A stretch of DNA of 64,000 nucleotides from an uncultured bacterium (GTDB lineage Bacteria; Patescibacteriota; Minisyncoccia; UBA6257; GWB1-50-10). Location of the stretch: positions 98,612 through 162,611 of the forward strand of contig CAVRNT010000001.1 in the NCBI GenBank assembly GCA_963722655.1, in the 5' to 3' direction. A program made the translations under genes and the position numbers. Positions 7,879 through 32,702 of this stretch are shown here, piece by piece (the stretch's first letter is position 1; the number at the start of each line of letters is the position of its first letter). Under the pieces are notes generated by a model. It did no database searches and had not been told where the DNA came from. It saw only the letters and a program-made list of their open reading frames with translations.

Positions 7879-8307
7879 ATGGACCTCAAAGAACAGGTAC
7901 AATCACTGGTTGAGAAAATGGGCTTCCCGGAAGCCCAAATTTCCGTCGATGACGAACACCACAAGGTCTCGATCGTTATTGATGACGAAGCGGTGCGGGC
8001 CCAACTCCCCAATCTCCTGCCGGCCCTGGAGCATCTCGTGAACCTCATCCTCCGCAAAGTGAAATCCCCGGCCTACGTCGTGGATTTGAATTACTACCGC
8101 CGCGAGCGCGAGCGGCTCATCGTCGAGCTAGCGAAGGCCGCCGCGAAGAAGGCGGCAATGACGAAGGGCGAAGTGGCCCTGCCCCCGATGAACGCCTACG
8201 AAAGGCGTTTGGTCCACGTGGAGATATCGACGAACCCCGACCTTAAGACCGAGAGCGTCGGCGCCGGCAAGGACCGGCACATCGTCATCCAGCCGACGAA
8301 CCTTTAA
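7879..8307 (+). CDS. Jag/KhpB-like R3H-domain RNA-binding protein
   Basis: 142 aa with C-terminal R3H-like region (YERRLVHVEIS...DRHIVIQ); follows yidC as is typical. Confidence 0.7.
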   Translation: MDLKEQVQSLVEKMGFPEAQISVDDEHHKVSIVIDDEAVRAQLPNLLPALEHLVNLILRKVKSPAYVVDLNYYRRERERLIVELAKAAAKKAAMTKGEVALPPMNAYERRLVHVEISTNPDLKTESVGAGKDRHIVIQPTNL

Positions 8308-9518
8308 TCCCCCGTTACGGGGATACTCCCACTTGCATTAGGCGTGGCGGGCAGCGGCAGCGGATTATTTCCGATATTGAGTGCATAGAGGTAGTTATCG
8401 AATCGGTTAATGAAATAAAGATTACCGCCGGCGATAGCCGGTTTTCCCGCGTCTAGCGGACCGCTGTTTGCGGCGAGCGGCAGAAGAGTGGAGACACCAC
8501 TTACGGTATCAACGCCGTAAAGGACGTCGTTGGAGTAGACCTTCCTCTCGAGATAATCGTCGGGCAGTGAGGCGCTCTTGAAATTGCTATTCGTCGGAAC
8601 GAAGCAATAAACGATCGAGCCGGAGTTCAGCGAGCACTTTGAGGGAAGAGTGATGAAAGGTATCGGCGCGACGTTCTGCAGGGTTTGACTCTTGAGGACC
8701 TGGAACCCGCTCGCCGAGGAATAGGTTATGAGAGTTGAACCATCATTCGTGAGTTCGGTGATTAGGCCGTTTAGCGGACCCATTAAGAGATTGATCGCGG
8801 ATGTTTTAATGTTAAAACTCCAAATCCTTCCACCATAGTTCGCGTTCCCCTTCTCCTTGATGAGGAGCGTGCTTGGCGGAACGAAATCAAATGAGGTGTC
8901 CAGTAATCGGAGGTCGTTCACAAGTACCCTTGGTTTCGGGGGCGTTTTTGTGAGGTCGAGCGTCACCAAATTGACATTAGACCCGTTCTGCTCGGTCGCC
9001 ACGAGCGTGTCGGAGTCCGCTCCCCAGGTCGCGTTCAAGATGTTAGCTGGCAGGGGTCGCCAAACCTGGTCAATGGCGTCGTAAATTCCCCAACTCGGCA
9101 GACGCGGGTCGCCGAAGGCGGCCAGGATGGATTTCCCATCCGGACTTTGTTTGATGAAGTTCACGGCGCTCACACCCTGCTGGGTGATCTGGGGATTCTT
9201 CTCTCCCGACTCGGCCTGCCAGACGATGCCACCTTGGTCCAAATAGAAGACCTCGCCCGTTCCTGGGTCGGTCCAGAAGAACGAAACCGGTTTATCCGAT
9301 ACCCTAATTAGAGCTCCGATAGTCGTCGTTGCTCCCACCGAGGGAATGCCACCGCCGCTAGTACTGGTACTGGTCAATCCGGCGAGGGGGAAATAGGGTG
9401 CGCTCGTCGGGCTGACCGGAGTCGGTTTCGTCGTAGTGCTCGTCCAGATAAAGTAAATTAAGAGACCAACAATTATAATCGCACTGACGACAATAATTAA
9501 TTTTACATAAGGTTTCAT
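8304..9518 (-). CDS. Secreted/membrane-anchored hypothetical protein, beta-propeller-like (first gene boundary of T4SS-like operon)
   Basis: 404 aa. N-terminal TM helix (LIIVVSAIIIVGLLIYFIW), then a Thr/Ser-rich linker, then PD40/TolB-like repeat character. Confidence 0.4.
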   Translation of the reverse strand: MKPYVKLIIVVSAIIIVGLLIYFIWTSTTTKPTPVSPTSAPYFPLAGLTSTSTSGGGIPSVGATTTIGALIRVSDKPVSFFWTDPGTGEVFYLDQGGIVWQAESGEKNPQITQQGVSAVNFIKQSPDGKSILAAFGDPRLPSWGIYDAIDQVWRPLPANILNATWGADSDTLVATEQNGSNVNLVTLDLTKTPPKPRVLVNDLRLLDTSFDFVPPSTLLIKEKGNANYGGRIWSFNIKTSAINLLMGPLNGLITELTNDGSTLITYSSASGFQVLKSQTLQNVAPIPFITLPSKCSLNSGSIVYCFVPTNSNFKSASLPDDYLERKVYSNDVLYGVDTVSGVSTLLPLAANSGPLDAGKPAIAGGNLYFINRFDNYLYALNIGNNPLPLPATPNASGSIPVTGD

Positions 9519-9533
9519 GGCGATGATACGTCG

Positions 9534-10937
9534 TTAATTTTGACAACCCTGGCCATCCGTCGGGTGCTTTCCTCCACTGCACAGCTCCACGTGCAAATTA
9601 CTGCCCGTTGTGGTTTCAAAAGTGGATCCGCCGCACTGGCTGTATTCATTAAGGACGCCTAAACCCTGATTGAAGAAACTTTGCATGACGTTATTGAGGT
9701 AACCGCAATCAAGCGGCGTTTTCGTTAAAACAACATCAGCGCAGGTTCCGATGTTGTGGCAGAGGGAAGCATGAACGACGGTCGGCGGCCAGGCCTCACT
9801 GATTTGCCAGCCGTTATACGGAGACCTGTAAGCTGCTTGCATTTTTATGACTAAACCAGAATTTAACAAACAAAGGCTATCATTGCATGCTCTAAGAGGT
9901 CCCTTGTTCGGCAATCCAGTGCTGGATAGATCCAAACATTGCAGGGCAGAGCAACCGCATTGGCTGTATATCGGATTACAGAAAGCCTTTGGGTCAGAGG
10001 ACGGAGCAATAGCACCCATGGATTGGTTGTGGGGGTAGCAGAGTTCCAGGGACGGGTTTAATCCAATCATACTCGTGCCCGAACTATTCATTTCCTGATA
10101 AGCGTAGATTAAACATCTCGCTCCAACAGCGACAGCACCGCTCGTCGTGGCCGACCCCGGGAAATAGGGGTACTGCCAAATTTCAGATCCGGGATTGATA
10201 ACCACGGTTCCCGACTTGAAATTGAGTAAGTTTACGATATTACCAAGTCCCAAGCTATAGTAATCTTTGTCACTGGTAAGGGTGAGCGTCGAACGCGTAT
10301 AAAATACTCGATTTTGGCAATTCGCCGTGGCCGGGTCGTCTGCACTAGATCCGGAATCGTAGTTACCACCCCCCAGGTAAGTGGTGGGATTGGCCATGCT
10401 GGCATAAGTGGCGTCGGCTGAGAGTGTAGAAGAGTTGTTGGGGTCGGCAGTTTGTGCGTTGAGGGGGATACATTCCGTGATTGGGACAGACACGCCGGAG
10501 CTTGTCGCGACTTGATTGAACCCCACTCCAGGGAGGGTGAGGGTAGTGATTTGCGGGTTGATGGTGTTCAGGATCAAGTAAGAGGCGAGGAGCAACGCCA
10601 CACCGTAGATGGCGGAAAGGATGATATCCCGTGCATCCTCCTGCCCTCCGGCGTTCCCGGCGGAGATCGTGTATTTGACCCCGCCGTAGACGATCATTAG
10701 AAGCGCTAGAATGCCGGAGAGGCCAAGGGCGATTTGGTAGAACGAGTTCAAAAATGTGCCGATGGGATTTGAAGAAGAAGCTGCGTCGGATAATTGTACG
10801 CAATTGCCGAAGCTAGAAGGACACGGGAAATTGAGATTCACGAGCTGGCTGTTGGGTCCGGCGTGGACGAAAGCCACGGGTATAACGAGCGTTAGTACGG
10901 CCAGTGAGCCTATCGCCATTATCTTGTATTTATTCAT
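9534..10937 (-). CDS. Pilin-like (VirB2/TrbC-type) N-terminal domain fused to large Cys-rich extracellular domain
   Basis: 467 aa. Signal peptide, then helix-AGNAGGQEDARD-helix (LGLSGILALLMIVYGGVKYTISAGNAGGQEDARDIILSAIYGVALLLASYLILNTI), the same architecture as the pilin paralogs at 31.5-33.1 kb. The C-terminal ~330 aa carry many Cys. Confidence 0.5.
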   Translation of the reverse strand: MNKYKIMAIGSLAVLTLVIPVAFVHAGPNSQLVNLNFPCPSSFGNCVQLSDAASSSNPIGTFLNSFYQIALGLSGILALLMIVYGGVKYTISAGNAGGQEDARDIILSAIYGVALLLASYLILNTINPQITTLTLPGVGFNQVATSSGVSVPITECIPLNAQTADPNNSSTLSADATYASMANPTTYLGGGNYDSGSSADDPATANCQNRVFYTRSTLTLTSDKDYYSLGLGNIVNLLNFKSGTVVINPGSEIWQYPYFPGSATTSGAVAVGARCLIYAYQEMNSSGTSMIGLNPSLELCYPHNQSMGAIAPSSDPKAFCNPIYSQCGCSALQCLDLSSTGLPNKGPLRACNDSLCLLNSGLVIKMQAAYRSPYNGWQISEAWPPTVVHASLCHNIGTCADVVLTKTPLDCGYLNNVMQSFFNQGLGVLNEYSQCGGSTFETTTGSNLHVELCSGGKHPTDGQGCQN

Positions 10938-10944
10938 ATGCCGT

Positions 10945-11646
10945 TTATTGGATATTGAAAATGCTTATCGTTTTGCTGAACTCCAGCGGATTTGCCGTGT
11001 TCTGCGTCGTGAGCGTCACCGGCAGCATCTGCTGGCTGGGCGATTGGGGCGAACCGATCTGAAGCGTGAGCTGGTTTTGGTTGCTCGTCGTGTTTTGGCC
11101 GTTCGTCTGCCAGGTAAACTGCAGCTGATCCAGGGAATCGACGTTGAAGAAATAAGGCCAAGCCGTCAGGGTGACCGTCCCGCCTGCGGGAACGGTCTTG
11201 CCGATTGAAGGATAATCGATGATCGCGAATGGCGCCGAGGCGAGGATGGAAACGGCGTTTTGGAATTGGGCGCCACCCGCCGCTTGGACTTGGACGCGGA
11301 CGGTGATGAGTCCGGACGGGTCGGGGTTGGCCGTGAAGGAGATGCTCTTTAGCCCCGTGCCGCTCTGGACCAGCTGGTCGTTCACGAACCAGCCGATTTG
11401 GGCGCCGCTCAAGTTGATGAGCTTGTTCCCGGCGATCTCCTCGACCGCAGCCATCACCTGCGTCCCGGGCGTGATCATCGCCTTTCCCGGAAAGTCGGCC
11501 GGGAAGTAATTATTGGCCTCCCAGGTGATGACGAGCGGATTGATCGTTTGAGCGTTGGCCGGCCCGACGGAAGCGCCGAAGAGCAGTGTCGCGGTGAGAG
11601 CCCCTAAAAAGGCGCACAGAATTATTTTTTGGAAAATATTTTTCAT
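10945..11646 (-). CDS. Secreted hypothetical protein
   Basis: 233 aa with signal peptide (MKNIFQKIILCAFLGALTATLLFGASVGPANA). Confidence 0.4.
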   Translation of the reverse strand: MKNIFQKIILCAFLGALTATLLFGASVGPANAQTINPLVITWEANNYFPADFPGKAMITPGTQVMAAVEEIAGNKLINLSGAQIGWFVNDQLVQSGTGLKSISFTANPDPSGLITVRVQVQAAGGAQFQNAVSILASAPFAIIDYPSIGKTVPAGGTVTLTAWPYFFNVDSLDQLQFTWQTNGQNTTSNQNQLTLQIGSPQSPSQQMLPVTLTTQNTANPLEFSKTISIFNIQ

Positions 11647-11981
11647 TTCGTTACCGGTATTTTTGCCACGACAGCGCTGGCCGCTTTGGGGTGATTGTGA
11701 AGATAGACCTTGATGGCAAAGGTCAGAACCGGTGCGGGGATGAAGGGGATCGCGTCGCCGACGACTTGAACGAGCAGAGAAACGGGCTTACTGGCCGTCG
11801 TATCCCCCTTTTCTTTGAAGAAGAACCAGGTGCCGCCAGTGCAGGCGAAGTTGATGATTGGGGCGATCACGAGACCTATCGCCAGCCCGTCCAGTATGTC
11901 GTTCAGGGTATAAAGGCCCAAAAGGAAGATGACCCAAATCACTACTTCCGCCTCGTTGATTTTTTTGTAATCCCGCGTCAT
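11643..11981 (-). CDS. Small membrane protein
   Basis: 112 aa, 2-3 predicted TM helices; overlaps neighbours by 4 nt at both ends. Confidence 0.4.
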   Translation of the reverse strand: MTRDYKKINEAEVVIWVIFLLGLYTLNDILDGLAIGLVIAPIINFACTGGTWFFFKEKGDTTASKPVSLLVQVVGDAIPFIPAPVLTFAIKVYLHNHPKAASAVVAKIPVTK

Positions 11982-13738
11982 TTTTCTTGTAATCCTTTTA
12001 TCTCGAGCATCTGCTCCGGATTCGTCGTGATGATCTGGTCCTCGGTGTAGGAGGCGATGATTTTGATCGCAACGTGCTTCAGCCCCGCGAAGAAGAGTCC
12101 CTCGCCGACCGCGGCCTCCAAAAGGAAGGCCTTCTCGCCCTCGGTGAGGCCGAAGGCCTTGGCGACGGCCTCGATGCTCGTCGGGGACTGTTTTAATAGT
12201 AGCTGAAGCGATGAGTTGGAGATGATCGGCGCGCCGTATTCCGACTTAATGAAGTCGTCCACGTCCTGGGTGATGGTCGTGACGCCGAGGAAGTACTTGC
12301 GGGCGCGCTTCACGAGCCCGAAGAGGAAGGAAGCACTGTCCTTGTATTTCATCATCCACCAGGCCTCGTCGATCACGAGCATCCGCTGTTTCAAAGACGA
12401 CCGGATGAGGTTCCAGACGAAGTTCAATACGATGTACATCGCGATCGGCCGGAGCTCTTCCTCGAGATCGCGGATTGAGAAGACGATGAGGCGGTTCTTG
12501 ATATCCACGTTCGTTGGGGCGTTCGTGAAGCCGGAGTAGGAGCCGTTCACGTATTTATCCAAACGCGCCGCCATTCCCCGGCCGCCCTCGCTGCTTTGGA
12601 GGACGGTCTGAAGATCGCCGAGGAGGGGCGGATTCAGTTCTTTGAGCGAACCGAAGTTATCGGCCGTGATGTCGCGGGAGGCGTAGGTCTCGGTGATCGC
12701 CCGGTCGAGCATCGCCTCCTCCTCCGGCGTGATCTTGCCGAGCATCAGCTTCACTAATCCGGTGAGGTTCAGGATATGCGACTTAAAGACGTCGGCCGGC
12801 TCCTCTCCCTCGGGGATGATCGGGATGTCGAACGGGTTCACGTGGCTTTCGGAAGTGAGGGAGATCTTGAAATAGCTGCCGCCGATCGCGTTCGCGAGGT
12901 TCTGGTACTCGTTCTCCGGATCGATGACGAGGACGTCCGTGCCCATCATCATCGAGCGGAGTATTTGGAGCTTGGTGGCGTAGGACTTGCCCGAACCGGA
13001 TTTGGCAAAGACAACCATATTGGCGTTCTCGAGCGAGAACCGGTCGAAGATGATGAGCCCGTTGTTATTCAAATTAATGCCGTACATCGTGCCAGTCTCA
13101 GAAGAGAGGTCCGGCGAGACGAAGGGGAAAAGCGACGAGGCCGGACCGGTGTTTAGGGGCGTCCGCAAGGCGAGTTTGTCCTCCCCGAGGGGCAGAACGG
13201 AGGTCAATCCTTCGGTTTGGCGGAAAAGCGCCGGTTTGGCGTAGACCAGCTTGCTTTCCAGGGCGTTCACGACAGTCTCCTCAAGAGTCTTGAGGTCCTC
13301 TTGGGTCGAGGCGTAGAGGGTGATGTAAACCCCGACTTCGAAAAGCCGCTCCCGCGCCTGCTGAAGGGAGTCCCGGAGGGTCTCTACGTCCTCGTGGGCG
13401 GTCTCAAGGACCGGGTCGCGGACGATGCCCTTCGCCTCCTTCTCATTCATCTCGGCCTCGATCTGGGCCACCTTCTTCCGCAGGTTCCGAAGGGCGAGCG
13501 CCGTGTCCATCGGATGCATGAAGATCGAGATGTCGATCATCGCTGGCAAATTTATAATGGACGAGAACCAACCGCTCGTGACGAATCGCGGATAGGTGAA
13601 GATGAAGATTGTCTTCGTGAAGTAATCGCCGATCTTCAAATAGTTGCTCCCCACCTCTAATCCGGCGGGGGCGATGATGTTCGGCAGGTCCTCTTCGCCC
13701 GGCTTGTAGGCCTTGGGTATTTTGATCTCGTCGCTCAT
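11978..13738 (-). CDS. VirB4/TrbE/CagE-family type IV secretion ATPase (C-terminal ATPase part)
   Basis: 586 aa. Walker A VVFAKSGSGKSYATK, Walker B LVIDEAWWMM and VirB4-like overall organisation. Confidence 0.75.
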   Translation of the reverse strand: MSDEIKIPKAYKPGEEDLPNIIAPAGLEVGSNYLKIGDYFTKTIFIFTYPRFVTSGWFSSIINLPAMIDISIFMHPMDTALALRNLRKKVAQIEAEMNEKEAKGIVRDPVLETAHEDVETLRDSLQQARERLFEVGVYITLYASTQEDLKTLEETVVNALESKLVYAKPALFRQTEGLTSVLPLGEDKLALRTPLNTGPASSLFPFVSPDLSSETGTMYGINLNNNGLIIFDRFSLENANMVVFAKSGSGKSYATKLQILRSMMMGTDVLVIDPENEYQNLANAIGGSYFKISLTSESHVNPFDIPIIPEGEEPADVFKSHILNLTGLVKLMLGKITPEEEAMLDRAITETYASRDITADNFGSLKELNPPLLGDLQTVLQSSEGGRGMAARLDKYVNGSYSGFTNAPTNVDIKNRLIVFSIRDLEEELRPIAMYIVLNFVWNLIRSSLKQRMLVIDEAWWMMKYKDSASFLFGLVKRARKYFLGVTTITQDVDDFIKSEYGAPIISNSSLQLLLKQSPTSIEAVAKAFGLTEGEKAFLLEAAVGEGLFFAGLKHVAIKIIASYTEDQIITTNPEQMLEIKGLQEK

Positions 13739-14385
13739 TGGGTTATCACCTCTTTCTTTTCGACCAGCTGCGGGTTGTAGAGATTGTAGAAAAGTTCCAC
13801 GAGGTCATCGTCCTCCAAAGGCACTGCCCGGAGGCCGATCTGATTCAAGCCGGTGATGACCTGCTCGGTGCGGCGGCGGAGCTGTTCCAAGTTCTCTTGG
13901 AGCGAGGCCTCTTCCGCGGCCTTCGCGGCCGATTTACCTCCCGAAAAGAGCGAGAGCAGCCCCTTGGAGCCGCCGCCGGGGACGACCACCGGGTCGTAAG
14001 GCACAACGGCGAAGAAAGTCTTCGTAATAATGGCGTTCTGTTCAACGAAGTTCCGGATGAAGTTGACATACTCGTCAATCTGGATCTTCAAGAGCTCGTT
14101 CGTTTCCTCGGCCTTGCGCGCCTCCATCAGCTTCAGGTATTTTTCCACGTTCACCTTCCGCGAGTGGATGAAGAACTGAACGGCGAAATCCAGTGCGTTC
14201 AGGAAATTTTGGAAGCCGCCGAGGATAAGGTTCTGCTCCTCCTCGGATTTGAGCTCGAAGTTGACCCCGCCGACGATGAGGACCTGCCGGAGGGATTTGT
14301 TCTTGAGGTAGACGACGCCGTCCTTGATGGATTTCACCTCCACGAACTCCTGCGACGGTTTGGTTGGCTGTTGTTTCTCCGCCAT
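13735..14385 (-). CDS. VirB4 N-terminal-domain-like protein (split VirB4?)
   Basis: 216 aa. VEVKSIKDGVVYLKNKSLRQVLIVGGVNFELKSEEEQNLILGGFQNFLNALDFAVQFFIH resembles the VirB4/TraC N-domain. Overlaps the ATPase ORF by 4 nt; 216 + 586 aa is about full-length VirB4. Confidence 0.45.
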   Translation of the reverse strand: MAEKQQPTKPSQEFVEVKSIKDGVVYLKNKSLRQVLIVGGVNFELKSEEEQNLILGGFQNFLNALDFAVQFFIHSRKVNVEKYLKLMEARKAEETNELLKIQIDEYVNFIRNFVEQNAIITKTFFAVVPYDPVVVPGGGSKGLLSLFSGGKSAAKAAEEASLQENLEQLRRRTEQVITGLNQIGLRAVPLEDDDLVELFYNLYNPQLVEKKEVITQ

Positions 14386-14399
14386 TTTATCTTATTTTA

Positions 14400-14891
14400 T
14401 CAGTAATCTATCCTTTTTGCTTGCTTGCGCTCGCCCGTGAGATAGACGACCGTCTCGTATCCCTGCTCCTCGCCCTTTTGCGCCTTCAGCGCAAAGAACT
14501 TACCGGTCGTGATGTTCAAAGCGACGTTCTTGAGCCGTTCCTCCAGGCCCATCTTGTGCCGGAGGTTCTCGATGTCCGTCAACTTGTTCAGGTCGATCGT
14601 GGTCGTCGGGTTGATCCTTTGCCAGGTGTAGACCCGGGGTTGCCAGAAATAAGTGAGTGCCGAGGTAACAATCTTCGGGAACTCCTGGCCGTTGATCTTC
14701 AAAAAAGCGAAAGCGAGGCCGATCATGCCGACGATCACCGTCACAATGACGGCGAAGAAGAGATTGAAGATTTGGAAGGAGATGTAGCCCAGAAGGGCCG
14801 CCCCGCCCACGTAGAAGAACTGTTGGAGAGTGAGGAAGCCGACGATCTTCGGCTTCTGTTCTATGAATTGTGGAATTTGGAAATTAGCCAT
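14400..14891 (-). CDS. Small two-TM membrane protein, VirB3-like candidate
   Basis: 163 aa with two hydrophobic helices (FFYVGGAALLGYISFQIFNLFFAVIVTVIVGMIGLAFAFL); sits directly upstream of the VirB4 parts. Confidence 0.35.
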   Translation of the reverse strand: MANFQIPQFIEQKPKIVGFLTLQQFFYVGGAALLGYISFQIFNLFFAVIVTVIVGMIGLAFAFLKINGQEFPKIVTSALTYFWQPRVYTWQRINPTTTIDLNKLTDIENLRHKMGLEERLKNVALNITTGKFFALKAQKGEEQGYETVVYLTGERKQAKRIDY

Positions 14892-16305
14892 TGCTCAAGT
14901 CGACGGTGTTGCCTTCGATTTTCGGCTCCGGCTTTTTGATGGCGCCGAGTATCGCCGGCGTTGCCACCCCCGCGGGAGACGTTTGTGGATCGGAGGACGC
15001 GACCATCGGCTTCACCGCGGTCGGCGCCGCGAACGTCTTTTCCGGCATGTTCTCCGCCTTAGGTTTGATGGTCATGGCCGGCTTTCCCATCGTTTCGGAG
15101 AGCGTTCCTGCGGCCGCCGGTATCGGCATTTCTTCCGGAAGCGGTTTTACCTCACCAACGTTCAGAAAAGCTGGTTCCTCCAAGGCACCGAGGGGCGTGC
15201 GGGTCTCGCTATAATGTACGACCCGTTTCTCTTCCGATTTGATCCCCGGTATCTCCAATTTCGCGAAGGCCGACCTCGGTTCCCCGGTCGCCGGTCTCTT
15301 CTTGAGGAAGAATCCACCGAGGGGCGCGGTAACGCTCCGGAAGACGGACTTCTGGGAAGCGATGTTCCCCTCCGGCACAATCTCTTCGTGGAGAATGAAC
15401 GGCGTCTCCGTTTTTTGTTCCTTGAGCGTGACGGACGACGTTTCTACTGGGATCGATTCTTCTTCCTCGGCACCGCCGATGTTCTCCAAAGAAACTACTC
15501 TTTCAGCCGTCGGCTTTATTTCACCCATAGGTTCATAGATGGAACTAATTGAACCGGTCAGACCACCGACGATGCCGGCTTCGATATCGGATGCTATTTC
15601 ATCGCATATCCTTTGGTCGATGCCAAGTTTCTCTTGCAAGGTCTTAAGCAGGTCGTCGGGGTGAACGAAACCTAAGATCACTTGCCCTACCACTGCTGCC
15701 ACTTGACTGGTTTTGTCATCGCTCAGATGGTGGTTAATGCACGTTCTATATGTGGTTTCCGCTCCCTCGTACGAATACATCGCGCGCCGGAGGTTGTCCG
15801 GAATAAAACGGTACCTTTTGAGGGTTTTCTCGAGATTGCTGTCACCGAGGGATTTCGGGTAAAGTCCGATATCCTGGCCGGGTGCCGCGATGACGAAATT
15901 GTAAATTGACTGTCTTTGCGTTTTGAGCCACCCCAACTTGCTGTTGTCCGTTTGACCGGGAATAGATCGCCAGAAAAGCCTTTCGAACCTGTCTTGGGAA
16001 TCCGGCGACAGGTTTTGTAGCACGATGCTAAATGCCTTGCCGTTCGCGCTGTTCAGAACCGCTCGCACGAGCGCCGGCTGGGCGTTCTTCGTCCAATCAT
16101 CATCACTTAGATCGCCCAAGACCATTGGGAGGCCGGAGAAAACGCCCTCCCAATAGACCGCTTCCCAATCCTCTAATGAAAAACCGCTTAGCAAACTCTC
16201 CAAGCCCCGCTCGGCTGCTGTAAACTGTTTCTTTTGGAGTGGTGCCCAAATAGACTCGTCCCAAGTCGGGAGCACACTCAATATTGTTTGAATATCTTCT
16301 TCCAT
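14884..16305 (-). CDS. Hypothetical protein of T4SS-like operon
   Basis: 473 aa with a Pro/Ala/Glu-rich C-terminal half; no recognised motifs. Confidence 0.4.
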   Translation of the reverse strand: MEEDIQTILSVLPTWDESIWAPLQKKQFTAAERGLESLLSGFSLEDWEAVYWEGVFSGLPMVLGDLSDDDWTKNAQPALVRAVLNSANGKAFSIVLQNLSPDSQDRFERLFWRSIPGQTDNSKLGWLKTQRQSIYNFVIAAPGQDIGLYPKSLGDSNLEKTLKRYRFIPDNLRRAMYSYEGAETTYRTCINHHLSDDKTSQVAAVVGQVILGFVHPDDLLKTLQEKLGIDQRICDEIASDIEAGIVGGLTGSISSIYEPMGEIKPTAERVVSLENIGGAEEEESIPVETSSVTLKEQKTETPFILHEEIVPEGNIASQKSVFRSVTAPLGGFFLKKRPATGEPRSAFAKLEIPGIKSEEKRVVHYSETRTPLGALEEPAFLNVGEVKPLPEEMPIPAAAGTLSETMGKPAMTIKPKAENMPEKTFAAPTAVKPMVASSDPQTSPAGVATPAILGAIKKPEPKIEGNTVDLSNG

Positions 16306-16310
16306 AACCG

Positions 16311-18167
16311 TTATTTTTTACCGCCACCCCCTCTGCCACCGCTGGGTGGTTTCGGTGCGCCGCCTTCCTTTTCTTCCCCCCCATCCTCTTCGTTGATCGC
16401 TTTTATCGCCTCCTCGACCTTCTCCGTTTTGCCTGGCGTGGCGAGGTATTCTTTACCGACCTGACCATAAGCCTTGCCAAGTTTTGTATTCTTGAGTTCA
16501 AAGCCGGCATCTTCGAATGTTTTTCGAGCACTCTTTGGTAATTGAGCCATAATATCTTCCATTGCCGCCGCCGCCTTTAGCGCATCATCGACGTTTTTAT
16601 CGATTTTAACCTTGTTCGCCTTCGCCGCAGCCAGCTCTCTCTCTGCGGCGCTAATTTCCTTAATATCTTTGCCTCGCTCGGCGATCCTAAGATTTTTTTG
16701 GGCAGTATCCACGGCATCGCCCGCATCTTCTTGATTTTTAAGTAGGGGATCTACTGCATCTTTCCGTTTCTTCTTCTCCTTCAGAAGGTCGGAAGCAATA
16801 GCCACACGCTCAGCATTGTTGGCATGAGCGTATCGCTGTGCCTTATCTTTTAGATTCTTCGGCAGTTTTTTGGTGGCATCCGCTATTTGTTTTTCAACTT
16901 TGGCTCGCTGCTCGGCCAAAGCATTGCCGGCTAAACGCACCTGTCCGGTGATCGGGGCAGCGATCGGTTTGAGCCACGACGGAAGATTTTGGCCGAATTT
17001 CTGCATTCCGCCGACAATATTGCGGCCCGCCTGAGTGCGGAGAGGTGCCGTCGCCATTCTGGCCGATGCTTTCCCGGCCCATCCCCTAACTTGTTTGCCT
17101 GTGCTTTTAGCGATATTAATCGCCCCCGCCGCGCCCGCGATGCCCATGCTCTTCGCGGCGATGAGTCCGCCGAGAAGGATACCGGCGAGGACCACCATCT
17201 GGGCGCCCTGGCTGAAGGTCGTCTCGAGGACCGAGCCGACGGAGCCACCCGTTGAGATCTGGGCGGAGCCCAAAAATTGGGCGCCGGTCAGGGCCACGTA
17301 GATGAAAAACGAGACGGCCGGAGCGAAGAAGACCCAGTCCAAGAACTTGCTCCACCATTCGTTGAAGAGCTTATTGAGCGGCGGAAAGACCCAGAAGAGC
17401 CAGACTAGAGGCGCGACGATGAGAAGGAAAGAAAGATACACGTAGCGGATGAGGAGCATTAAGGCGAGTGCGATCATCACGAGTGCAGCGATGGCGGTAA
17501 AGGCCGTCGTGAAGATCAGCCCCGCGATGCTCGTGAGGGCCGCCGCCGTCACCCCGCCCGCGGCGCTACCCTGATCCGCCGGGTTCGGCGGTTCCGGGTT
17601 TTCCGGCGGGAGAAGGAGCTTCTGCGGCGCGAAAGCGTTGTCGATCGCCGAGACCATATCGCCACTCATCTTGCCGTTAAGAAAAACGTTCGTGAGGGAG
17701 TTCGAGAAGGTGATGAAGATGCCGGCGATGGTCAAGCTGAAGTTGACGATGATCGCGGCGCCGATGAGCTTCGGCAATAAGCTCTTGGCGCTGAATCTCT
17801 CGTAGCGGACGATGGTTGCGACCGCGACGATGATCATCATGAGGACGAAGCCAAGGTTCGCCACGTCGCGGGCGATCGTCCAGCCGACGCCGACGAGCGC
17901 GTTGTTCTGGTTCAAAATGTCAGCGTTCAAGTGCATCATCAAGTTCACCAAGAAGCCGCCGAGGATGAAGAGCAGTCCGAAGACGAAGTTCAGGATGAAG
18001 GCCAGGATGCGGAAGACCATCGTGGCGACGCCGGCCGGGCTGAGGTCGAGGAGGCCGAAAAGCGCCGCGTGGGTCGTCTGCGGCATCACCAAAAGCGGTA
18101 GGGCGATCAGGGCGCCGATCAGGGCAATCTTCAAAATTCTTGTCACTTGTTGCTTATTTCCTGTCAC
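16311..18167 (-). CDS. Polytopic membrane protein, VirB6/TrbL-like, with C-terminal Lys-rich coiled-coil tail
   Basis: 618 aa; the first ~330 aa have at least 6 TM helices; the C-terminus is charged coiled-coil ending GGRGGGGKK. Confidence 0.5.
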   Translation of the reverse strand: MTGNKQQVTRILKIALIGALIALPLLVMPQTTHAALFGLLDLSPAGVATMVFRILAFILNFVFGLLFILGGFLVNLMMHLNADILNQNNALVGVGWTIARDVANLGFVLMMIIVAVATIVRYERFSAKSLLPKLIGAAIIVNFSLTIAGIFITFSNSLTNVFLNGKMSGDMVSAIDNAFAPQKLLLPPENPEPPNPADQGSAAGGVTAAALTSIAGLIFTTAFTAIAALVMIALALMLLIRYVYLSFLLIVAPLVWLFWVFPPLNKLFNEWWSKFLDWVFFAPAVSFFIYVALTGAQFLGSAQISTGGSVGSVLETTFSQGAQMVVLAGILLGGLIAAKSMGIAGAAGAINIAKSTGKQVRGWAGKASARMATAPLRTQAGRNIVGGMQKFGQNLPSWLKPIAAPITGQVRLAGNALAEQRAKVEKQIADATKKLPKNLKDKAQRYAHANNAERVAIASDLLKEKKKRKDAVDPLLKNQEDAGDAVDTAQKNLRIAERGKDIKEISAAERELAAAKANKVKIDKNVDDALKAAAAMEDIMAQLPKSARKTFEDAGFELKNTKLGKAYGQVGKEYLATPGKTEKVEEAIKAINEEDGGEEKEGGAPKPPSGGRGGGGKK

Positions 18168-18180
18168 TTGTTTAATTTAC

Positions 18181-19776
18181 CTATCTGTTGGCTTCGCACT
18201 GCTGTTGTTTGTTTTGGGCCGCCGCAAGGGTTATTTGAATGCCAGAGAGCATAATCTGGACGTTGCTATCTAAGTTGGCCGCAGTCATTGTGAGGTTGGC
18301 GACATTGCTAGAATCAACGCTATTTAGCGTACTGGACGTGACATTCGGGTCACCGATGATGCCAATCAGCGTGTTGACCGAAACCGTTGAAGAAGTAACC
18401 TGAACCGCCGCTTGTTGTAACGCGGCGGGCGTCGAACTCACGGCGATCGTCAGATTCTCCTGAGCCCAGCCGTAGTCGGGGTTGACGGGATTAGTGCCCA
18501 AGCAACCAATGAGCCCGGTAATTGGCCCGCCCAACGTCGTTATTAGGGTTTGATTGGTGCTAGAAGCGGTCGCGAGCGTCGTTGATGCGTCGGCGAGCGA
18601 ACTTGCGGCCTGGTTCAGTTGGGTCATGTACTGGCTCTGGAGCGCCGTGTTTATGGTATTAGTGTAGTTATTTGCCGCTGTGATCGTCGATGTGTTATTG
18701 GTCAGTGATTCCGGAGACGGCGCGTTTGGACCGCTAGACGGCTGGCCGCCGTTCGTCGCCGAAAGGATGACCCCTTGCAGGCCCTGCACCCCCGCCTTGA
18801 TCAGTCGGTTAAAGGCGGCGTCGGCGATCATTGCGATCGCGTTCGTTATATCCGGATCGCTGATGGTGAGATCGAGGTTAGCGTACAGCGATTTATTCAA
18901 GCCCTCTGCGAGAGCGGCGCCCGGCGTGGAGATCTTAAGATCGGCGCACTTCCACTGAAGTGTCGTTGGGTCCACGCCCGGCGCGACCAATGCTGGATCG
19001 AGGAAGTTCGGGGTGCCGCTGATGGGCGACGGCGGATTGTCCTGATCGGTGAGATTAGAAGGGGCCGGTACTGTCTGGGAGCCGACGGGCGTTCCACCTT
19101 GGATCTTGATGAGCCGCCAGCTGACGCATGACTGTGATTGGAACCCGACGTTCACTTGGGTTTGGAGGACGTTCTGAGCCGTAACCTGCTGAGCGTTGTT
19201 GTAAAGGGTGTCTTGGGTGATGATGTCTACGCCGTACTGGTTGTTCTGCGGCGCAAGGAGTTCGTAGTAGCCGATGACGCCGCCGGCGTCGAACCTGTTC
19301 CAGAAATCGTTGAAATTCGCGACGATGGAATTGAGCGTGCAGGAGCTCGGCTGGACCTGCGGGCTGGGGGCGGTTAGCTCCAGATTGACCTTGAAGCTGA
19401 ACGGGGAACAAAGGGTCGGCAGGATCGCCTGGGCCGTGTCCCCGACCGCTTGGTTCAGCGCTGGCTGGAAGACCCCTTGGCCGAAATTCTGGATGAACTT
19501 CGGGCTGCCGCCGCCGTTTATCCAGGTGATTATCTGATCGGTCATCGTGTCGATAATCCGCTTTTTAAGTGCGGACAAGGCAACTTTCAAGAGATTATCT
19601 TGCACCCATTGCCACACGCTTTGCGTTTTAGCCGCAGTGGTTATGTTTTGTAATGTTGGGTCGGAAACCAACATCACTCCAGCTACTTGAGCTTTTGCTG
19701 TTGGCGTAAAAAAACCGGGAGCCGAAATAACAGTAACAATGCCAAAAATTAAAACTGCGGTAAGAAATTTTTTCAT
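18181..19776 (-). CDS. Secreted Thr/Ser/Asn-rich hypothetical protein
   Basis: 531 aa with signal peptide (MKKFLTAVLIFGIVTVISAPGFFTPTAKA) and low-complexity T/S/N/Q-rich regions. Confidence 0.4.
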   Translation of the reverse strand: MKKFLTAVLIFGIVTVISAPGFFTPTAKAQVAGVMLVSDPTLQNITTAAKTQSVWQWVQDNLLKVALSALKKRIIDTMTDQIITWINGGGSPKFIQNFGQGVFQPALNQAVGDTAQAILPTLCSPFSFKVNLELTAPSPQVQPSSCTLNSIVANFNDFWNRFDAGGVIGYYELLAPQNNQYGVDIITQDTLYNNAQQVTAQNVLQTQVNVGFQSQSCVSWRLIKIQGGTPVGSQTVPAPSNLTDQDNPPSPISGTPNFLDPALVAPGVDPTTLQWKCADLKISTPGAALAEGLNKSLYANLDLTISDPDITNAIAMIADAAFNRLIKAGVQGLQGVILSATNGGQPSSGPNAPSPESLTNNTSTITAANNYTNTINTALQSQYMTQLNQAASSLADASTTLATASSTNQTLITTLGGPITGLIGCLGTNPVNPDYGWAQENLTIAVSSTPAALQQAAVQVTSSTVSVNTLIGIIGDPNVTSSTLNSVDSSNVANLTMTAANLDSNVQIMLSGIQITLAAAQNKQQQCEANR

Positions 19777-20573
19777 GAAGCCAATGATTGATATTGCGCT
19801 TGCATGGTTTGTTGAACCGTCAAATTCTCATTGAGAATATCGTTGATTTGGTTCAAACCGATAACCGCCTTAGCTGGATCGTTCGCGAGGTCGGCGATGG
19901 CCGAGAAGACAGTTATTTTCTCTTCCCAAAGGTTGATGTTAGAAAGGTGCCAGGCCGCCCAGTTGTTCGGCGCGCGCAAAGCCAAGAGGTCCACGACCTC
20001 CTGGTTTGCGATCGCGATGTACTGGTTTAGGGCTGAAGTGTCGTTGTTGTTAAAAAAGTTCGATACCATCTTGTCCATCGGCGTCTTAAAAGAGCCGAAA
20101 TCCTTTTGGGTGATCGCTCCTACGGCGGCGAGGTATTGGAGCTGGCTCGTTGTCGAAACATCGTCCGATGTCAGAATATCCTCCGGAGCGTAGGTTTTGT
20201 ATTGGAGCTTTTGGTTGATGGCTTGAGAGAGGAGTTGACTCGTCTCGTCCACGGACGGGAAGCTGATAGGGTTGGAGCCGGTCGCACTCGCGCCGGCGAA
20301 GCCGCTGTTCATCTGGAAAACGGTTTGGGCGTAGTTTTGCGTCAAAAGGTCGGTGAGATTATCCGTTACCGCTGCGGTCCCGCTCGCAGTGCCGCCGTTG
20401 TTCATCGGTCCGCGGTTCGCGCTCACGGTGTAGTCCAAGCTGCCGTCTGCACCAGCGCCAGTCTTGGCCGTGACCAAGGGTGCGTTACTTGACGAAGACG
20501 CCCCGATGATGACGAAAAATAGAGCGATTCCGCCCAAAAGAACGATCGCGGCGATGATTTTTCGTCTTTTCAT
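19773..20573 (-). CDS. Membrane-anchored/secreted hypothetical protein
   Basis: 266 aa with N-terminal TM helix (IIAAIVLLGGIALFFVIIGAS); first gene of the operon in transcription order. Confidence 0.4.
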   Translation of the reverse strand: MKRRKIIAAIVLLGGIALFFVIIGASSSSNAPLVTAKTGAGADGSLDYTVSANRGPMNNGGTASGTAAVTDNLTDLLTQNYAQTVFQMNSGFAGASATGSNPISFPSVDETSQLLSQAINQKLQYKTYAPEDILTSDDVSTTSQLQYLAAVGAITQKDFGSFKTPMDKMVSNFFNNNDTSALNQYIAIANQEVVDLLALRAPNNWAAWHLSNINLWEEKITVFSAIADLANDPAKAVIGLNQINDILNENLTVQQTMQAQYQSLAS

Positions 20574-22371: not shown

Positions 22372-23529
22372 TTAAAGTTTGCTCAAGACGTCCTTGAAAC
22401 CGTTGTAGGACGTGCTGATGACTAAAGTGTTGCCGGACCAGGCGTAGTTAATGGAAGCTCCGCTGCTCAAGGGGAGATAGCGGGTTGGAACGCCGGAGAC
22501 ACTGCCGCTCTTCCAGGTGCCGGGCGTGCCGGGATCGGTCGCGAAGGCGCCGACCCAGCTGGTATTACTCTCGAAAGCTTGGGTGAAAGCAGCTTGAATG
22601 TCGCTCAAATTCGCGTTTGAGGTGATGGCGGTCACGTAGCCGAGCCACTCCTTGCCGCTGCTATCCACATAGACGAAGCCGGCTGTTCCTTGATCGTCCC
22701 AGGTGTTCTGGAGAGCGGGGGCGTTCAAGCTCAAGCCGAAGACGGTATGCATCACGCTCGCGAAGCCGACCGGGTTGCCAGTTTGGTCTTGATAAGTTAC
22801 CTCAACGAGCTGCGGTGCGGTCGAGGTTTGGATGTTGAGACTTGCAAGCGTCGCTCCGGTCGTGATGGTCGTCGCGGTAAGGCTCGCGTCGGCCGGGGTC
22901 TTGAAGAGCGAGACGTGAGGCTGGACGGCCGGGGGGGTCGTGGATGCGGTCGAGGTCGGTGCCGGAACTATTTCGGTGGAGGTCGGCGTGACCGGTGGGG
23001 GCGTCGGATTTTCCGCGACGGGCGCCGGCTGAAGCGTCGGCGTCGCGAAGAACATCGGATAGATGACGAAGTAGCCGAGGACCGCGAGGCCCACGATGAT
23101 GATGACGGTGATTATCCCGACGAAGACCCCCCTGCCACCCCTTTTCTTCGGAGGAATCGGCGAGGGAGAGCTGGTGCCGCTGCCGGGTGCTCCCACGACG
23201 GGCGGCGTCGGCGGGTTGAAATCCATTTTCGGGAGATCGAAGCTCGGAGCGCCGCCGCCCATGTCCTTGGTCGCCATACCCGCCGGAGGCGGAGGCGGGA
23301 TCAGTGCGCCTGAGGGGACGTAAGGTTTCGGCGTCTCACCGGTCTTCACCGCATTCAGATCGGAGCCCATCGTGCGGACGCCGAAGCTGGGCGTTCCGCC
23401 CTGGTTCGGGACGATCGGCGACTCCCCTTCGCCGGTACCGATATTGAAGTTATCGTTTGGCATTGGTCTCATTATAACAAACCCGCCGGTCGGGCGGGTT
23501 GTGGACAGTCCCTCACCCTCGATTTTCAA
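22372..23529 (-). CDS. Membrane-anchored protein with Pro-rich disordered N-terminus
   Basis: 385 aa with a Pro/Gly-rich N-terminal 140 aa, a central TM (VFVGIITVIIIVGLAVLGYFVIYPMFF) and a C-terminal globular region. Confidence 0.4.
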   Translation of the reverse strand: MKIEGEGLSTTRPTGGFVIMRPMPNDNFNIGTGEGESPIVPNQGGTPSFGVRTMGSDLNAVKTGETPKPYVPSGALIPPPPPAGMATKDMGGGAPSFDLPKMDFNPPTPPVVGAPGSGTSSPSPIPPKKRGGRGVFVGIITVIIIVGLAVLGYFVIYPMFFATPTLQPAPVAENPTPPPVTPTSTEIVPAPTSTASTTPPAVQPHVSLFKTPADASLTATTITTGATLASLNIQTSTAPQLVEVTYQDQTGNPVGFASVMHTVFGLSLNAPALQNTWDDQGTAGFVYVDSSGKEWLGYVTAITSNANLSDIQAAFTQAFESNTSWVGAFATDPGTPGTWKSGSVSGVPTRYLPLSSGASINYAWSGNTLVISTSYNGFKDVLSKL

Positions 23530-25583
23530 GGGTGAGGGATCTCTTTTAATTGTTTGACGGAGAGCGCCAATTTCCCCTCCTCGGCGCGGATGACCCTGGC
23601 CCGCACCACGTCGCCGATCTTCGCGACGTCGCCGATGGTCTTCACAAAGCCTTCCTTGAACTCGGAGATGTGGATCATTCCGTCCTTCCCGCCGCCGAGA
23701 TCGACGATCGCGCCGAAGTCCAGCAGTTTGATGATAGGGCCTTCGACGATCTCACCCACCTTGTATTCTTTGGTGATGCCTTGGACCGCCTTGATCGCCC
23801 GGTCGACGAGCGCCTGGTCGACGCCCGAGATGAAGACGGAGCCGTCCTCCTCAATGTCGATGCCGACCCGGTTCTCGCAGTCGGCGATGATGCCGTTGAT
23901 GACCTTGCCTCCGGGGCCGATGAGCTCCCCAATCTTCTCGGGGTTGATGTGGAGGGTCACGATCTTCGGGGCGAAGGGCGAAAGTTCGGCTCTGGGATGA
24001 GCGATGGTCCTTTCCATCGCGTCCAGGATGTGGAAGCGGGCCTTCCTCGCGGCCGCAAGGGCCTCGACGAAGATCTTTTCGTTTATGCCGCCGATCTTCA
24101 CGTCCATCTGGATGGCGTTCACACCGTCCCGCGTCCCCGCCACCTTGAAATCCATGTCACCGTAGTGGTCCTCTGGTCCTTGGATGTCGGTCAAGATCTT
24201 GTACTCACCCTTGTCGTTCGACATGAGCCCGATCGCGATGCCCGCCACATGCTTTTTGATCGGCACGCCGGCGTCCATAAGTGAAAGGGAAGAGGCGCAG
24301 GTCGAAGCCTGCGACGATGAGCCGTTCGAAGAAAGAGTCTCGGCGACGATGCGGATCGTGTAAGGGAAGTCTTCCATCTTCGGGATCATCGGGGCGATGG
24401 CCTTGGCGGCCAAGGCGCCGTGGCCGATCTCGCGCCGGCCGGGACCCCGCGAGCGGCCCGCTTCGCCGGTCGCAAACTTCGGGAAGTTATAGTGGAGCAT
24501 GAAACGCTTCTTGCCGGTCGTCTCCATGGTCTCGATAAGCTGCTCGGCGCCGGGGCTCGCCAAGGTCGTGATAGCGAGGACATGCGTCTCGCCCCGTACG
24601 AAGACGGCCGATCCGTGGGTGCGCTTGAAAAGACCTACCTCGGCCAGAAGGTCGCGGACCTCGTCCAGGGCGCGGCCGTCTGCGCGGCGGTCATGTTTTA
24701 TCGCCTCTTCATGGACGAAGTTGTCCACGTACTCTTCGAAGACAATCTCGGCGATCGGGAAAACCTCCTCCGATTCACCGCTCTGAACCAAGTGTTCAAA
24801 AAGCCGCGCCTTCAAGGCGTCGGCCGTCCTGGTCTTTAATGTCTCGGCGACCACCGGTTTCAAGAAATCCTCGATCTTTTTGTGCAGTGCCGGTTCGGCT
24901 TCGGCCCAAGCGACGTTTGCCTTCGGTTTGCCCATCTCCTTCGCAACCTTCGTTTGAAAGGTGGTCAAGGCCCTTATTTTTTCAAAGGATCGGCGGAAAA
25001 CGTCCGCGGCCTCGCTTTCCGAGACCTCCTTGCCGCCGAACTCGATCATATTCATGAACTTCTCCGTGCCGGCGAAGAAGGCCTGATACCCACCCTCTTC
25101 GACGGGCTTTTCGGAGACAATCTTCACGCCCGCGACCGGCCCGCTCCACGGAACGTCGGAGGTCACGAGAGCGGCCGAGGTGGCGAGAAGACCGATTACG
25201 TCGGGGTCGTTCTTTTCGTCGTAAGCGAGGATGGTGATCGTGACCTGGACCTCCCGGCGGAGACGCGGGTCAAAGAGCGGCCGGATGGTCCGGTCGATGA
25301 GGCGGGCCGAGAGCGTCGCCTCGTCCGAGGGGCGGCCTTCGCGCCGGACGTATCGACTGCCGATGATCTTGCCGGCGGCGTAGAAGCGCTCCTCGTAGTC
25401 CACGGTCAAGGGGAAGAAGTCGCCCGGTTTGTCCTCGTTGCTCATCACGACCGTCGCGAGGACGGCGGTCTCGCCGTAGCGCCCGAGGACAGAACCGTTC
25501 GCCTGCCCGGCGAGCTTCGAGAACTCCAATGAGACCTCCTCTCTGTCCAAGGTCGTCTTATATAATTTTCTCTGCAGATCCAT
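23526..25583 (-). CDS. pnp: Polyribonucleotide nucleotidyltransferase (PNPase)
   Basis: 685 aa with two RNase PH-like cores plus C-terminal KH and S1 domains (GEIVEGPIIKLLDFGAIVDLGGGKDGMIHISE). Confidence 0.9.
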   Translation of the reverse strand: MDLQRKLYKTTLDREEVSLEFSKLAGQANGSVLGRYGETAVLATVVMSNEDKPGDFFPLTVDYEERFYAAGKIIGSRYVRREGRPSDEATLSARLIDRTIRPLFDPRLRREVQVTITILAYDEKNDPDVIGLLATSAALVTSDVPWSGPVAGVKIVSEKPVEEGGYQAFFAGTEKFMNMIEFGGKEVSESEAADVFRRSFEKIRALTTFQTKVAKEMGKPKANVAWAEAEPALHKKIEDFLKPVVAETLKTRTADALKARLFEHLVQSGESEEVFPIAEIVFEEYVDNFVHEEAIKHDRRADGRALDEVRDLLAEVGLFKRTHGSAVFVRGETHVLAITTLASPGAEQLIETMETTGKKRFMLHYNFPKFATGEAGRSRGPGRREIGHGALAAKAIAPMIPKMEDFPYTIRIVAETLSSNGSSSQASTCASSLSLMDAGVPIKKHVAGIAIGLMSNDKGEYKILTDIQGPEDHYGDMDFKVAGTRDGVNAIQMDVKIGGINEKIFVEALAAARKARFHILDAMERTIAHPRAELSPFAPKIVTLHINPEKIGELIGPGGKVINGIIADCENRVGIDIEEDGSVFISGVDQALVDRAIKAVQGITKEYKVGEIVEGPIIKLLDFGAIVDLGGGKDGMIHISEFKEGFVKTIGDVAKIGDVVRARVIRAEEGKLALSVKQLKEIPHP

Positions 25584-25588
25584 AATTG

Positions 25589-31515: not shown

Positions 31516-31836
31516 TTATTGCGCCTTGATGACGTTGGTGACTATCGTCTGGACGCCGCTTGCTAGAAGCGCCACGGCCGCCGCGATCACGGCGTAGAGG
31601 ATAATCCTCTTCGCTTTGGTAATCTTTTCGTCGTCGCCGCCGGCCGTGACGAAAAGTATCGCCGCCCAGATGAGCATCCCGACCGCGATTATCCAAAAGA
31701 TGCCAAAAAGGTAGTTCACCCAGTTATTGAGGGTGTTTTTAACGTCCGTAATCGATGTAATGGGCGGTGTTTGAGCGGCGGCGATCGCTGGGAGGAAGAA
31801 AACCGTGAGTGCGCCGAGCGTCTTTTTGATCATCAC
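31516..31836 (-). CDS. VirB2/TrbC-like pilin paralog 1
   Basis: 106 aa; signal peptide ending AIAAAQ, then helix-AGGDDEKITKAKR-helix. Confidence 0.55.
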   Translation of the reverse strand: MMIKKTLGALTVFFLPAIAAAQTPPITSITDVKNTLNNWVNYLFGIFWIIAVGMLIWAAILFVTAGGDDEKITKAKRIILYAVIAAAVALLASGVQTIVTNVIKAQ

Positions 31837-31901
31837 TTTTATAATACAACTTTATGTAAAAAAACAAACCCCGCTTGGCGGGGTTTGTTCATCGATCGAT
31901 T

Positions 31902-32261: not shown

Positions 32262-32293
32262 TTCGGTAGGTTGTGCTTTGTAAGCTCGACCTT

Positions 32294-32701: not shown

Positions 32702-32702
32702 T

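Follow-up and report, generated by a model that had tools for sequence, protein, structure and literature searches.

Here, we describe an eleven-gene operon at positions 8304-20573, on the minus strand, of a 64,000-nucleotide stretch of bacterial contig CAVRNT010000001.1 (the whole stretch is called the window below), whose products include the core of a type IV secretion system (T4SS) and a pilin that ends in a predicted peptidase-like domain. The open reading frames (ORFs), numbered g1 to g11 along transcription, are co-directional and tightly packed: neighbours overlap by 4 nt at g1/g2, g6/g7, g7/g8 and g8/g9 and by 8 nt at g4/g5, and the other junctions within the operon are gaps of 5-15 nt. 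The ORF coordinates thus bear out the packing and the 4-nt overlaps described in an earlier reading of the DNA made from its letters alone (hereafter the sequence-only reading). Translation and hydropathy placed N-terminal signal or anchor segments in g1, g2, g9, g10 and g11. On one side, the operon is flanked by ksgA and the genes for a DksA-type zinc finger protein, PNPase and an NYN-domain protein, and on the other by jag, yidC, dnaA and dnaN. A scan using one genome per species yielded 80 related loci (L001-L080) in Paceibacteria-type metagenome-assembled genomes (MAGs), whose ORFs were searched by BLASTP and iterated hidden Markov models (HMMs). Across these 80 loci, the order ksgA, g1-g7, (g8), g9-g11, jag and yidC on the opposite strand, dnaA and dnaN was found nearly everywhere that the contigs reach. 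Because this order recurs in 80 related genomes, g1-g11 are real genes and not chance ORFs, and the syntenic conservation that the sequence-only reading had named as a check holds.

The motor of the system is a VirB4-family ATPase. NCBIfam and Pfam identified g7 (11978-13738, 586 aa) as a VirB4 of the MPF_FATA/CD1110 type, scoring 375.7 bits against the conju_CD1110 model (cut-off 325) over profile positions 188-733 of 752, matching the Pfam TraG P-loop family with E = 9.5e-30 and also exceeding the gathering score of AAA_10/DUF87. The Walker A motif FAKSGSGKSY occupies residues 244-253, and the Walker A and B residues G248, G250, K251, S252, D457 and E458 are invariant, leaving both motifs intact. 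The TrsD-like g6 (13735-14385), identified by NCBIfam, carries the VirB4 N-terminal domain as a separate polypeptide; it matches VirB4_plasma over profile positions 99-218 (E = 2.1e-10), TrsD NF041427 (E = 1.8e-7) and positions 4-106 of the same CD1110 model. On this profile evidence, g6 and g7 jointly constitute one VirB4. In two relatives, the halves form a single ORF of 790 aa (L020:9326-11698) or 769 aa (L059:9434-11743), and hence the split, which the sequence-only reading had proposed, is a real and common arrangement and not a pseudogene.

The remaining core components are small or polytopic membrane proteins. The PrgI/VirB3-like g5 (14400-14891) matches Pfam PrgI (PF12666) with E = 8e-8 and 33.2 bits against a cut-off of 27, together with a weak NCBIfam match to TraL, and has orthologs in 72 of the 80 loci. 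Upstream of it lies g3 (16311-18167, 618 aa), a putative VirB6/TrbL-like polytopic membrane protein with at least six hydrophobic segments and a Lys-rich coiled-coil tail of ~250 aa. The g3 protein of the window itself has no Pfam match, and its comparison with PrgH of pCF10 by hhalign was not significant; the VirB6 identity that had been proposed is confirmed solely through its orthologs, 5 of 27 of which match Pfam TrbL/VirB6 (PF04610; best E = 1.1e-6). For VirB4, VirB3 and the pilin, the identities proposed from the letters were upheld directly, by Pfam and NCBIfam scores above the cut-offs.

The pilin gene g10 (9534-10937) encodes a fusion protein of 467 aa with 18 cysteines, in which a signal peptide and two transmembrane (TM) helices (residues 1-135) are followed by a middle domain (~136-351) and a LAS-like domain (352-467). 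Its VirB2-like pilin core, residues 56-126 (10560-10772), matches Pfam T4SS_pilin (PF18895) with 39.4 bits against a cut-off of 26.6 and aligns with four small pilins encoded elsewhere in the window. As in VirB2, TrbC and TraA pilins, a short charged loop connects the two TM helices, and Pfam T4SS_pilin/TrbC matches are obtained; in contrast to these classical pilins, which span 70-120 aa and carry no appended domain, g10 bears a C-terminal extension of roughly 330 aa. The pilin module (1-135) is kept in all orthologs, while extension lengths lie between 0 and about 600 aa and the C-terminal domains are highly variable; the pilin orthologs of the related loci have a median length of 262 aa, and 49 of 69 are longer than 200 aa. 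The middle domain is lineage-specific, with only 8 relatives among 5.8e9 proteins.

The C-terminal domain of g10 (9537-9884) was assigned by profile similarity to the LAS (lysostaphin/D-Ala-D-Ala peptidase/Hedgehog) fold. Single C-terminal sequences gave nothing against Pfam, including its M15 and Hedgehog models, even at E <= 10, and a five-sequence profile of this region had no match in the PDB; the Hedgehog/LAS link emerged only after the family had been enlarged by a search of 1.84 billion proteins, in which the domain profile found at least 704 representatives at E <= 1e-3; this LAS/Hedgehog-like family appears to be previously unrecognised. A profile of 32 of these family sequences then matched 23 Hedgehog N-terminal entries of the PDB (best E = 3.9e-5), with M15 LD-carboxypeptidases next, below significance, and an hhalign comparison of the LAS profile with ShhN gave E = 2.9e-6. 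These last ~115 residues carry the motif W-x-[IV]-[ST]-E-A-[WY]-P-P-T-V-x-H-x-S-x-C-H-x-x-G-T-C-[AV]-D ... N-E-Y ... H-[VI]. H394, D401 and H449 of g10 are candidate zinc ligands, and E431 and H389 are conserved too: H394, D401 and E431 are invariant, and at least 90% of 75 family members retain H449 and H389. H394 and D401 superpose on the Shh zinc ligands H141 and D148, and E431 on E177, with H449 as the would-be third ligand. The H-x6-D...H triad, the glutamate and the fold are shared with the LAS peptidases VanX, VanY/LdcB and MepA and with the Hedgehog N-domain, and the same likeness extends to the L-Ala-D-Glu endolysins of phage T5 and Ply500. Unlike the known LAS proteins, the domain is Cys-rich, and therefore probably disulfide-bonded, and about 17 extra residues are inserted ahead of its last histidine. 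These comparisons suggest that residues 352-467 form a LAS zinc-hydrolase-like fold and point to a predicted peptidase. The sequence-only reading had described a Cys-rich ectodomain of 330 aa; the cysteines and the approximate length stand, whereas the description missed that the region ends in a recognisable LAS-fold, peptidase-like domain.

The distribution of this domain is distinctive. It is always the most C-terminal part of the protein, and nearly all of its representatives are fused to T4SS pilins; in the sample of 75, 61 members carry T4SS_pilin and 3 carry TrbC/VirB2. Within the related loci, only 5 of 69 pilin orthologs (L002, L052, L061, L062 and L075) possess it. Two other positional g10 orthologs carry different predicted wall enzymes, one a Peptidase_M23 domain (E = 2e-33) and one a YkuD L,D-transpeptidase domain (E = 6e-12). 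In the closest relative, L001, whose VirB4 is 91% identical, the pilin (L001:8919-10367) shares the middle domain at about 50% identity, and its last ~160 residues form a different Cys-rich domain with the motifs SCHYGG ... N-x-G-S-x-A-x-D-F ... H-V-H. This terminal domain was considered as a LAS relative, was not detectably related to the LAS profile and is treated here as a separate domain. Since L001 differs in this part despite the shared middle domain, the terminal domain of the pilin turns over very quickly. Pilin-hydrolase fusions are not mentioned in PMC12102498, PMC10633639 or the other literature that was searched, which is not proof that they are unpublished; a LAS peptidase-like domain on a T4SS pilin is thus apparently an unreported detail.

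Four further VirB2-like pilin genes, coding for small proteins of about 105-145 aa, lie on the minus strand at 31516-33302, 11 kb from the operon. Pfam PF18895 matches two of them (E = 7e-8 and 5e-8), a local pilin HMM matches all four (E = 1e-11 to 1e-6), and all four can be aligned to the pilin module of g10. The machine thus extends beyond the operon, and the "minimal" apparatus of the sequence-only reading was an understatement. We consider these small pilins the likely bulk pilins of the same machine. In two of the pilin ORFs (31902-32534 and 32703-33302), translation probably begins downstream of the listed start, the likelier starts being MTKFEK... and MHKILIV.... A solute-binding protein gene precedes the array, and a PMT-family (protein O-mannosyltransferase-like) glycosyltransferase gene (30175-31512, minus strand) begins 3 nt downstream of it, which raises the possibility of pilin glycosylation.

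The components expected of a conjugative system were sought as well. No relaxase, coupling protein (T4CP/VirD4) or VirB11 was found among the 40 ORFs scanned across the window, and neither VirB9 nor VirB10 was found in the operon or among the same 40 ORFs, so the absences noted in the sequence-only reading hold over this range. The sole FtsK-family protein found in the window has the alpha and gamma domains of a chromosomal FtsK. Among published genomes, relaxases occur in only 103 of 3,035 patescibacterial genomes, and distant T4CP homologs are present in many Patescibacteria (PMC12102498). Since relaxase and coupling protein are both lacking from the scanned ORFs, we read the machine as one that probably does not conjugate; the sequence-only reading had likewise set it apart from classical conjugation, in agreement with PMC12102498 and PMC10633639.

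Comparison of the 80 loci further clarified the lineage and the mode of inheritance. VirB4 is 56-91% identical across the loci, and the accessory proteins are 20-35% identical. Among the best 120 VirB4 homologs (76-100% identity), all those with a taxon name are patescibacterial (Jorgensenbacteria, Brennerbacteria, Paceibacterota), the patescibacterial homologs of g7 being 76-91% identical, and all 80 loci come from MAGs labelled patescibacterial or unclassified bacterium. The organism that carries the operon is a Paceibacteria-type patescibacterium, and the earlier remark that similar sets occur in the candidate phyla radiation (CPR) was exact, the genome itself being patescibacterial. As the gene order is fixed across 80 species, the operon is a vertically inherited, origin-proximal chromosomal module. 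The G+C profile revealed no compositional island. An origin in an integrated conjugative element or a plasmid was considered and ruled out by the conserved synteny together with the composition.

Six genes of the operon encode accessory proteins. The first, g1 (19773-20573), is membrane-anchored, with an N-terminal TM segment (residues 6-24), a low-complexity linker and a helical C-domain; Y147, P202 and D232 are invariant, and an iterative HMM found positional orthologs in 38 loci, whose profile has no PDB or Pfam match and no relatives outside the operon family. The g2 product (18181-19776) is a secreted protein of 531 aa with a signal peptide; its N-domain is conserved and contains Cys, three long helices form a bundle at its C-terminus, and it has orthologs in 44 loci. 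Its AlphaFold2 model has a predicted local distance difference test (pLDDT) score of 53 overall and of 78-94 for residues 370-531, which comprise the three helices. Foldseek matches of this model were generic helical-bundle and ciliary proteins (E >= 0.02), and no assignment was made from them; the ortholog profile likewise has no Pfam or PDB sequence match. A third genome has g1 and g2 joined in a single ORF of 725 aa (L012:2378-4555), and this fusion, together with the g6/g7 fusions in L020 and L059, suggests physical interaction of the partners. The g4 product (14884-16305) is cytoplasmic and has no TM segment; it combines a conserved helical module at the N-terminus with a long Pro-rich tail that is probably disordered. 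It has orthologs in 59 loci, and their profile has no PDB or Pfam match, belongs to no known family and has no relatives outside the operon family; a C-terminal DPYREP motif is kept in most g4 orthologs and is absent from the g4 of the window.

The other three accessory genes lie downstream of VirB4. The small, fast-evolving membrane protein g8 (11643-11981, 112 aa), whose gene has 4-nt overlaps on both sides, has sequence homologs in only 5 close loci, and a small multi-TM ORF occupies the g8 slot in about half of the loci. The g9 product (10945-11646) has a signal peptide, is secreted and tentatively consists of tandem beta-sandwich (Ig-like) repeats; its orthologs, found in 70 loci, yield a profile that weakly matches the Ig-like proteins Hoc (E = 0.002) and antigen receptor (E = 0.007). 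The last gene, g11 (8304-9518), encodes a protein anchored by a TM segment (residues 7-25), with orthologs in 61 loci whose profile matches TolB structures with E = 3.9e-7. The g11 product is thus a membrane-anchored TolB-like beta-propeller, which had not been recognised from the letters alone. A VirB8 analog had also been suggested as something to look for: at the level of sequence profiles, hhalign comparison of the VirB8-like PrgL of pCF10 with the profiles of g1, g9 and g11 gave probabilities below 1%, and none of the three was supported as such an analog.

The operon belongs to an already published system class (2023-2025), a chromosomal T4SS gene cluster that is typical of the ultra-small Patescibacteria (CPR), including its missing relaxase, its TrsD partner and its dnaA/ksgA neighbourhood. 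Quinonero-Coronel et al. 2025 (PMC12102498) analysed 3,035 genomes and described a patescibacterial VirB4 clade that is monophyletic and falls within MPF_FATA; near VirB4, they encountered TrsD, PrgI, VirB6 and VirB2-like pilins, and relaxases were almost absent; in Paceibacteria, the neighbours of the T4SS are dnaA, dnaN, ksgA, rnpA and rpmH. In Southlakia, Wang et al. 2023 (PMC10633639) established that epibiotic growth requires the T4SS and its pilins, and noted that relaxase and coupling protein are missing. The window operon has the same VirB4, TrsD-like, PrgI/VirB3, VirB6 and VirB2-like set as these systems (PMC12102498; Southlakia epibionticum SEML1_0006-0019, PMC10633639); like them, it is chromosomal, located by dnaA/dnaN/ksgA as in Paceibacteria, with no relaxase, coupling protein, VirB9 or VirB10 nearby. 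The version here is that of Paceibacteria, whereas the genetically studied one is that of Saccharimonadia; the small-pilin array is 11 kb away instead of inside the cluster, and g1, g2, g4, g8, g9 and g11 are without named counterparts in the published patescibacterial T4SS. The sequence-only reading had called the accessory proteins uncharacterised; as a class, the system itself has been published.

Comparison with the conjugative MPF_FATA systems, namely pCF10 (PrgH-PrgI-PrgJ-PrgK-PrgL) and pGO1 (TrsC-TrsD-TrsE), revealed a shared CD1110-family VirB4, a VirB6-VirB3-VirB4 order equal to prgH-prgI-prgJ of pCF10, and a VirB4 split like TrsD/TrsE of pGO1. A wall hydrolase function downstream of VirB4 is also common to both, being predicted in the window operon, where it would reside in a LAS domain on a pilin; in pCF10, it belongs to an SLT/CHAP protein such as PrgK. 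In contrast to the MPF_FATA plasmids, the window operon is chromosomal and non-mobile and has no relaxase, PcfC-type coupling protein, detectable VirB8-like PrgL or PrgB-type adhesin, whereas it does have pilins, which are lacking in the Gram-positive systems.

Taken together, we consider it probable that the operon encodes a patescibacterial T4SS that forms a pilus and serves as a contact-dependent conduit to a host cell, and not for conjugation. Homology establishes VirB4/TrsD, VirB3, a VirB6-like protein and the pilins as its components, and the pilus or conduit function is inferred. In the mechanism that we propose, VirB4/TrsD, docked on VirB3 and VirB6, would pull pilins from the membrane and polymerise them into a pilus or a short conduit. 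The proteins g1, g2, g9 (Ig-like) and g11 (TolB-like propeller) may be wall-spanning or distal parts that replace the absent VirB8, VirB9 and VirB10. The g10 pilin would insert with its C-terminus outside, according to VirB2 topology and consistent with its Cys-rich domain, and would thereby place the LAS domain on the membrane or pilus surface; the displayed domain could then cut peptidoglycan peptide stems to open a path, a VirB1/PrgK-like job performed on the cell's own wall, the host's wall or both. Such a machine would most likely serve the epibiotic lifestyle through macromolecule exchange with the host cell. Along similar lines, a 2025 FEMS review (PMC12857230) speculates that the T4SS and its pilus are a conduit for exchange or uptake, and a preprint (10.64898/2026.06.21.733656) describes pilus-like tubes at the parasite-host interface of one cultivated relative, along with the use of host RNA.

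Several points weigh against this interpretation. Everything in it beyond homology is what we infer, the roles given to g1, g2, g4, g8, g9 and g11 are guesses from topology, and some other part of the genome could encode a coupling protein. The LAS domain is an accessory and not a core requirement, because only 5 of the 69 orthologs carry it, and it could be a non-catalytic binder, as Hedgehog binds with the same fold. Moreover, a helical filament of the VirB2 type may not sterically accommodate an appendage of 330 aa on each subunit, and g10 may work solely from the membrane, or else be a subunit that is rare or terminal.

The same pilin hydrolases also figure in an account that we regard as unlikely, in which the operon builds a surface filament, an adhesion organelle or a wall-remodelling device through which nothing is translocated, the hydrolases remodelling the cell's own wall, for example during budding or division. 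The C-terminal domains of the pilins (LAS, M23 and YkuD) are indeed predicted peptidoglycan enzymes, a coupling protein that would recruit substrates is lacking, and the place beside the origin and division genes would fit a housekeeping role. However, every VirB4-VirB3-VirB6 core studied so far is a translocation machine, several T4SSs are able to secrete although they have no T4CP (Ptl and Brucella VirB, cited in PMC12102498), and the high sequence divergence of pilin arrays suggests that their interaction partners vary.

A dedicated DNA-uptake (competence) machine comparable to Helicobacter ComB or archaeal Ced, whose VirB4-driven pilus would draw environmental or host DNA to the membrane, appears improbable to us. 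Such a role would accord with the lack of a relaxase or coupling protein among the scanned ORFs, with the lack of nucleotide synthesis in Patescibacteria (PMC10633639), and with the location of T4SS genes beside comF, recG and radA in the class ABY1 (PMC12102498). The VirB4 also weakly matches CedB (E = 6.7e-11) and CedD (E = 3e-4), but far below the cut-offs, and these matches reflect generic VirB4 homology only. No competence genes adjoin the operon here. Furthermore, competence in Southlakia needs ComEC and type IV pili, and cells that have lost ComEC are viable while the T4SS is essential (PMC12857230); because ComEC loss leaves Southlakia viability unaffected, transformation is disfavoured as the essential role of the T4SS. 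Nothing that we found supports DNA uptake specifically, which the sequence-only reading had put forward beside cell-cell contact.

Finally, a true conjugative apparatus of an integrated element, with its relaxase and coupling protein outside the window, could be imagined from the conjugative CD1110 family of the VirB4, the pCF10-like order and a tyrosine recombinase 6 kb away (26569-27453), yet it is very improbable indeed given the same ksgA-jag/yidC/dnaA slot in 80 species, a VirB4 identity that tracks relatedness from 91% to 56%, the even G+C content, the XerC/D-like nature of the recombinase and the rarity of relaxases stated above.

Returning to the contact-dependent conduit, the variety of the pilin C-termini allows a further and more tentative proposal, which we regard as possible: patescibacterial pilins may be modular carriers, in which a VirB2-type module displays interchangeable wall-active LAS, M23 and YkuD enzymes, so that the armed pilus drills through the wall of the host or of the bacterium itself and establishes the conduit for feeding or exchange. 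If this is true, rapid domain swapping would tune a modular pilin tool to the wall chemistry of the host. Hydrolase-bearing pilins would then offer a testable answer to how a monoderm T4SS without VirB1, VirB8, VirB9 and VirB10 crosses walls, and the same proposal bears on what makes the T4SS essential for epibiosis. Should the domains prove active and host-directed, they would be candidate host-range determinants in the largest uncultivated bacterial radiation. The operon itself is one more Paceibacteria example of a system that had been recorded in about 2,400 patescibacterial genomes; its 11 genes also offer a clean and complete reference for how the Paceibacteria version is laid out, every position having been compared with 80 relatives.

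Regulatory and replication signals around the operon were weak. Promoter and terminator scans gave no signal above shuffled expectation; the 55-nt gap upstream of g1 contains one weak candidate -35/-10 pair at 20617-20589. Counts of DnaA boxes were not above chance, and oriC was not called. The PNPase gene and the gene for the NYN-domain (RNase-like) protein share the strand of the operon and occupy 23526-26158, about 3 kb upstream of it; the preprint cited above (10.64898/2026.06.21.733656) ties the PNPase and VirB4 of Patescibacteria to a diet of host RNA. Between the PNPase and DksA-like genes, an ORF of 385 aa (22372-23529, minus strand) overlaps the end of the PNPase gene by 4 nt and has no Pfam match. 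The tyrosine recombinase mentioned above is encoded on the plus strand, with an architecture of XerC/XerD type (Phage_integrase and SAM_1), and an opposite-strand ORF of 279 aa that overlaps it has no match and is probably spurious. The remaining genes of the window encode PBP1, GyrA, FtsK, FtsH, RecA, NusA, SHMT, a class I aminoacyl-tRNA synthetase and similar proteins. At 60829-62667 on the plus strand, a protein of 612 aa that contains DUF11 and DUF7619 repeats and probably belongs to the cell surface is encoded next to a family 2 glycosyltransferase (58784-60268).

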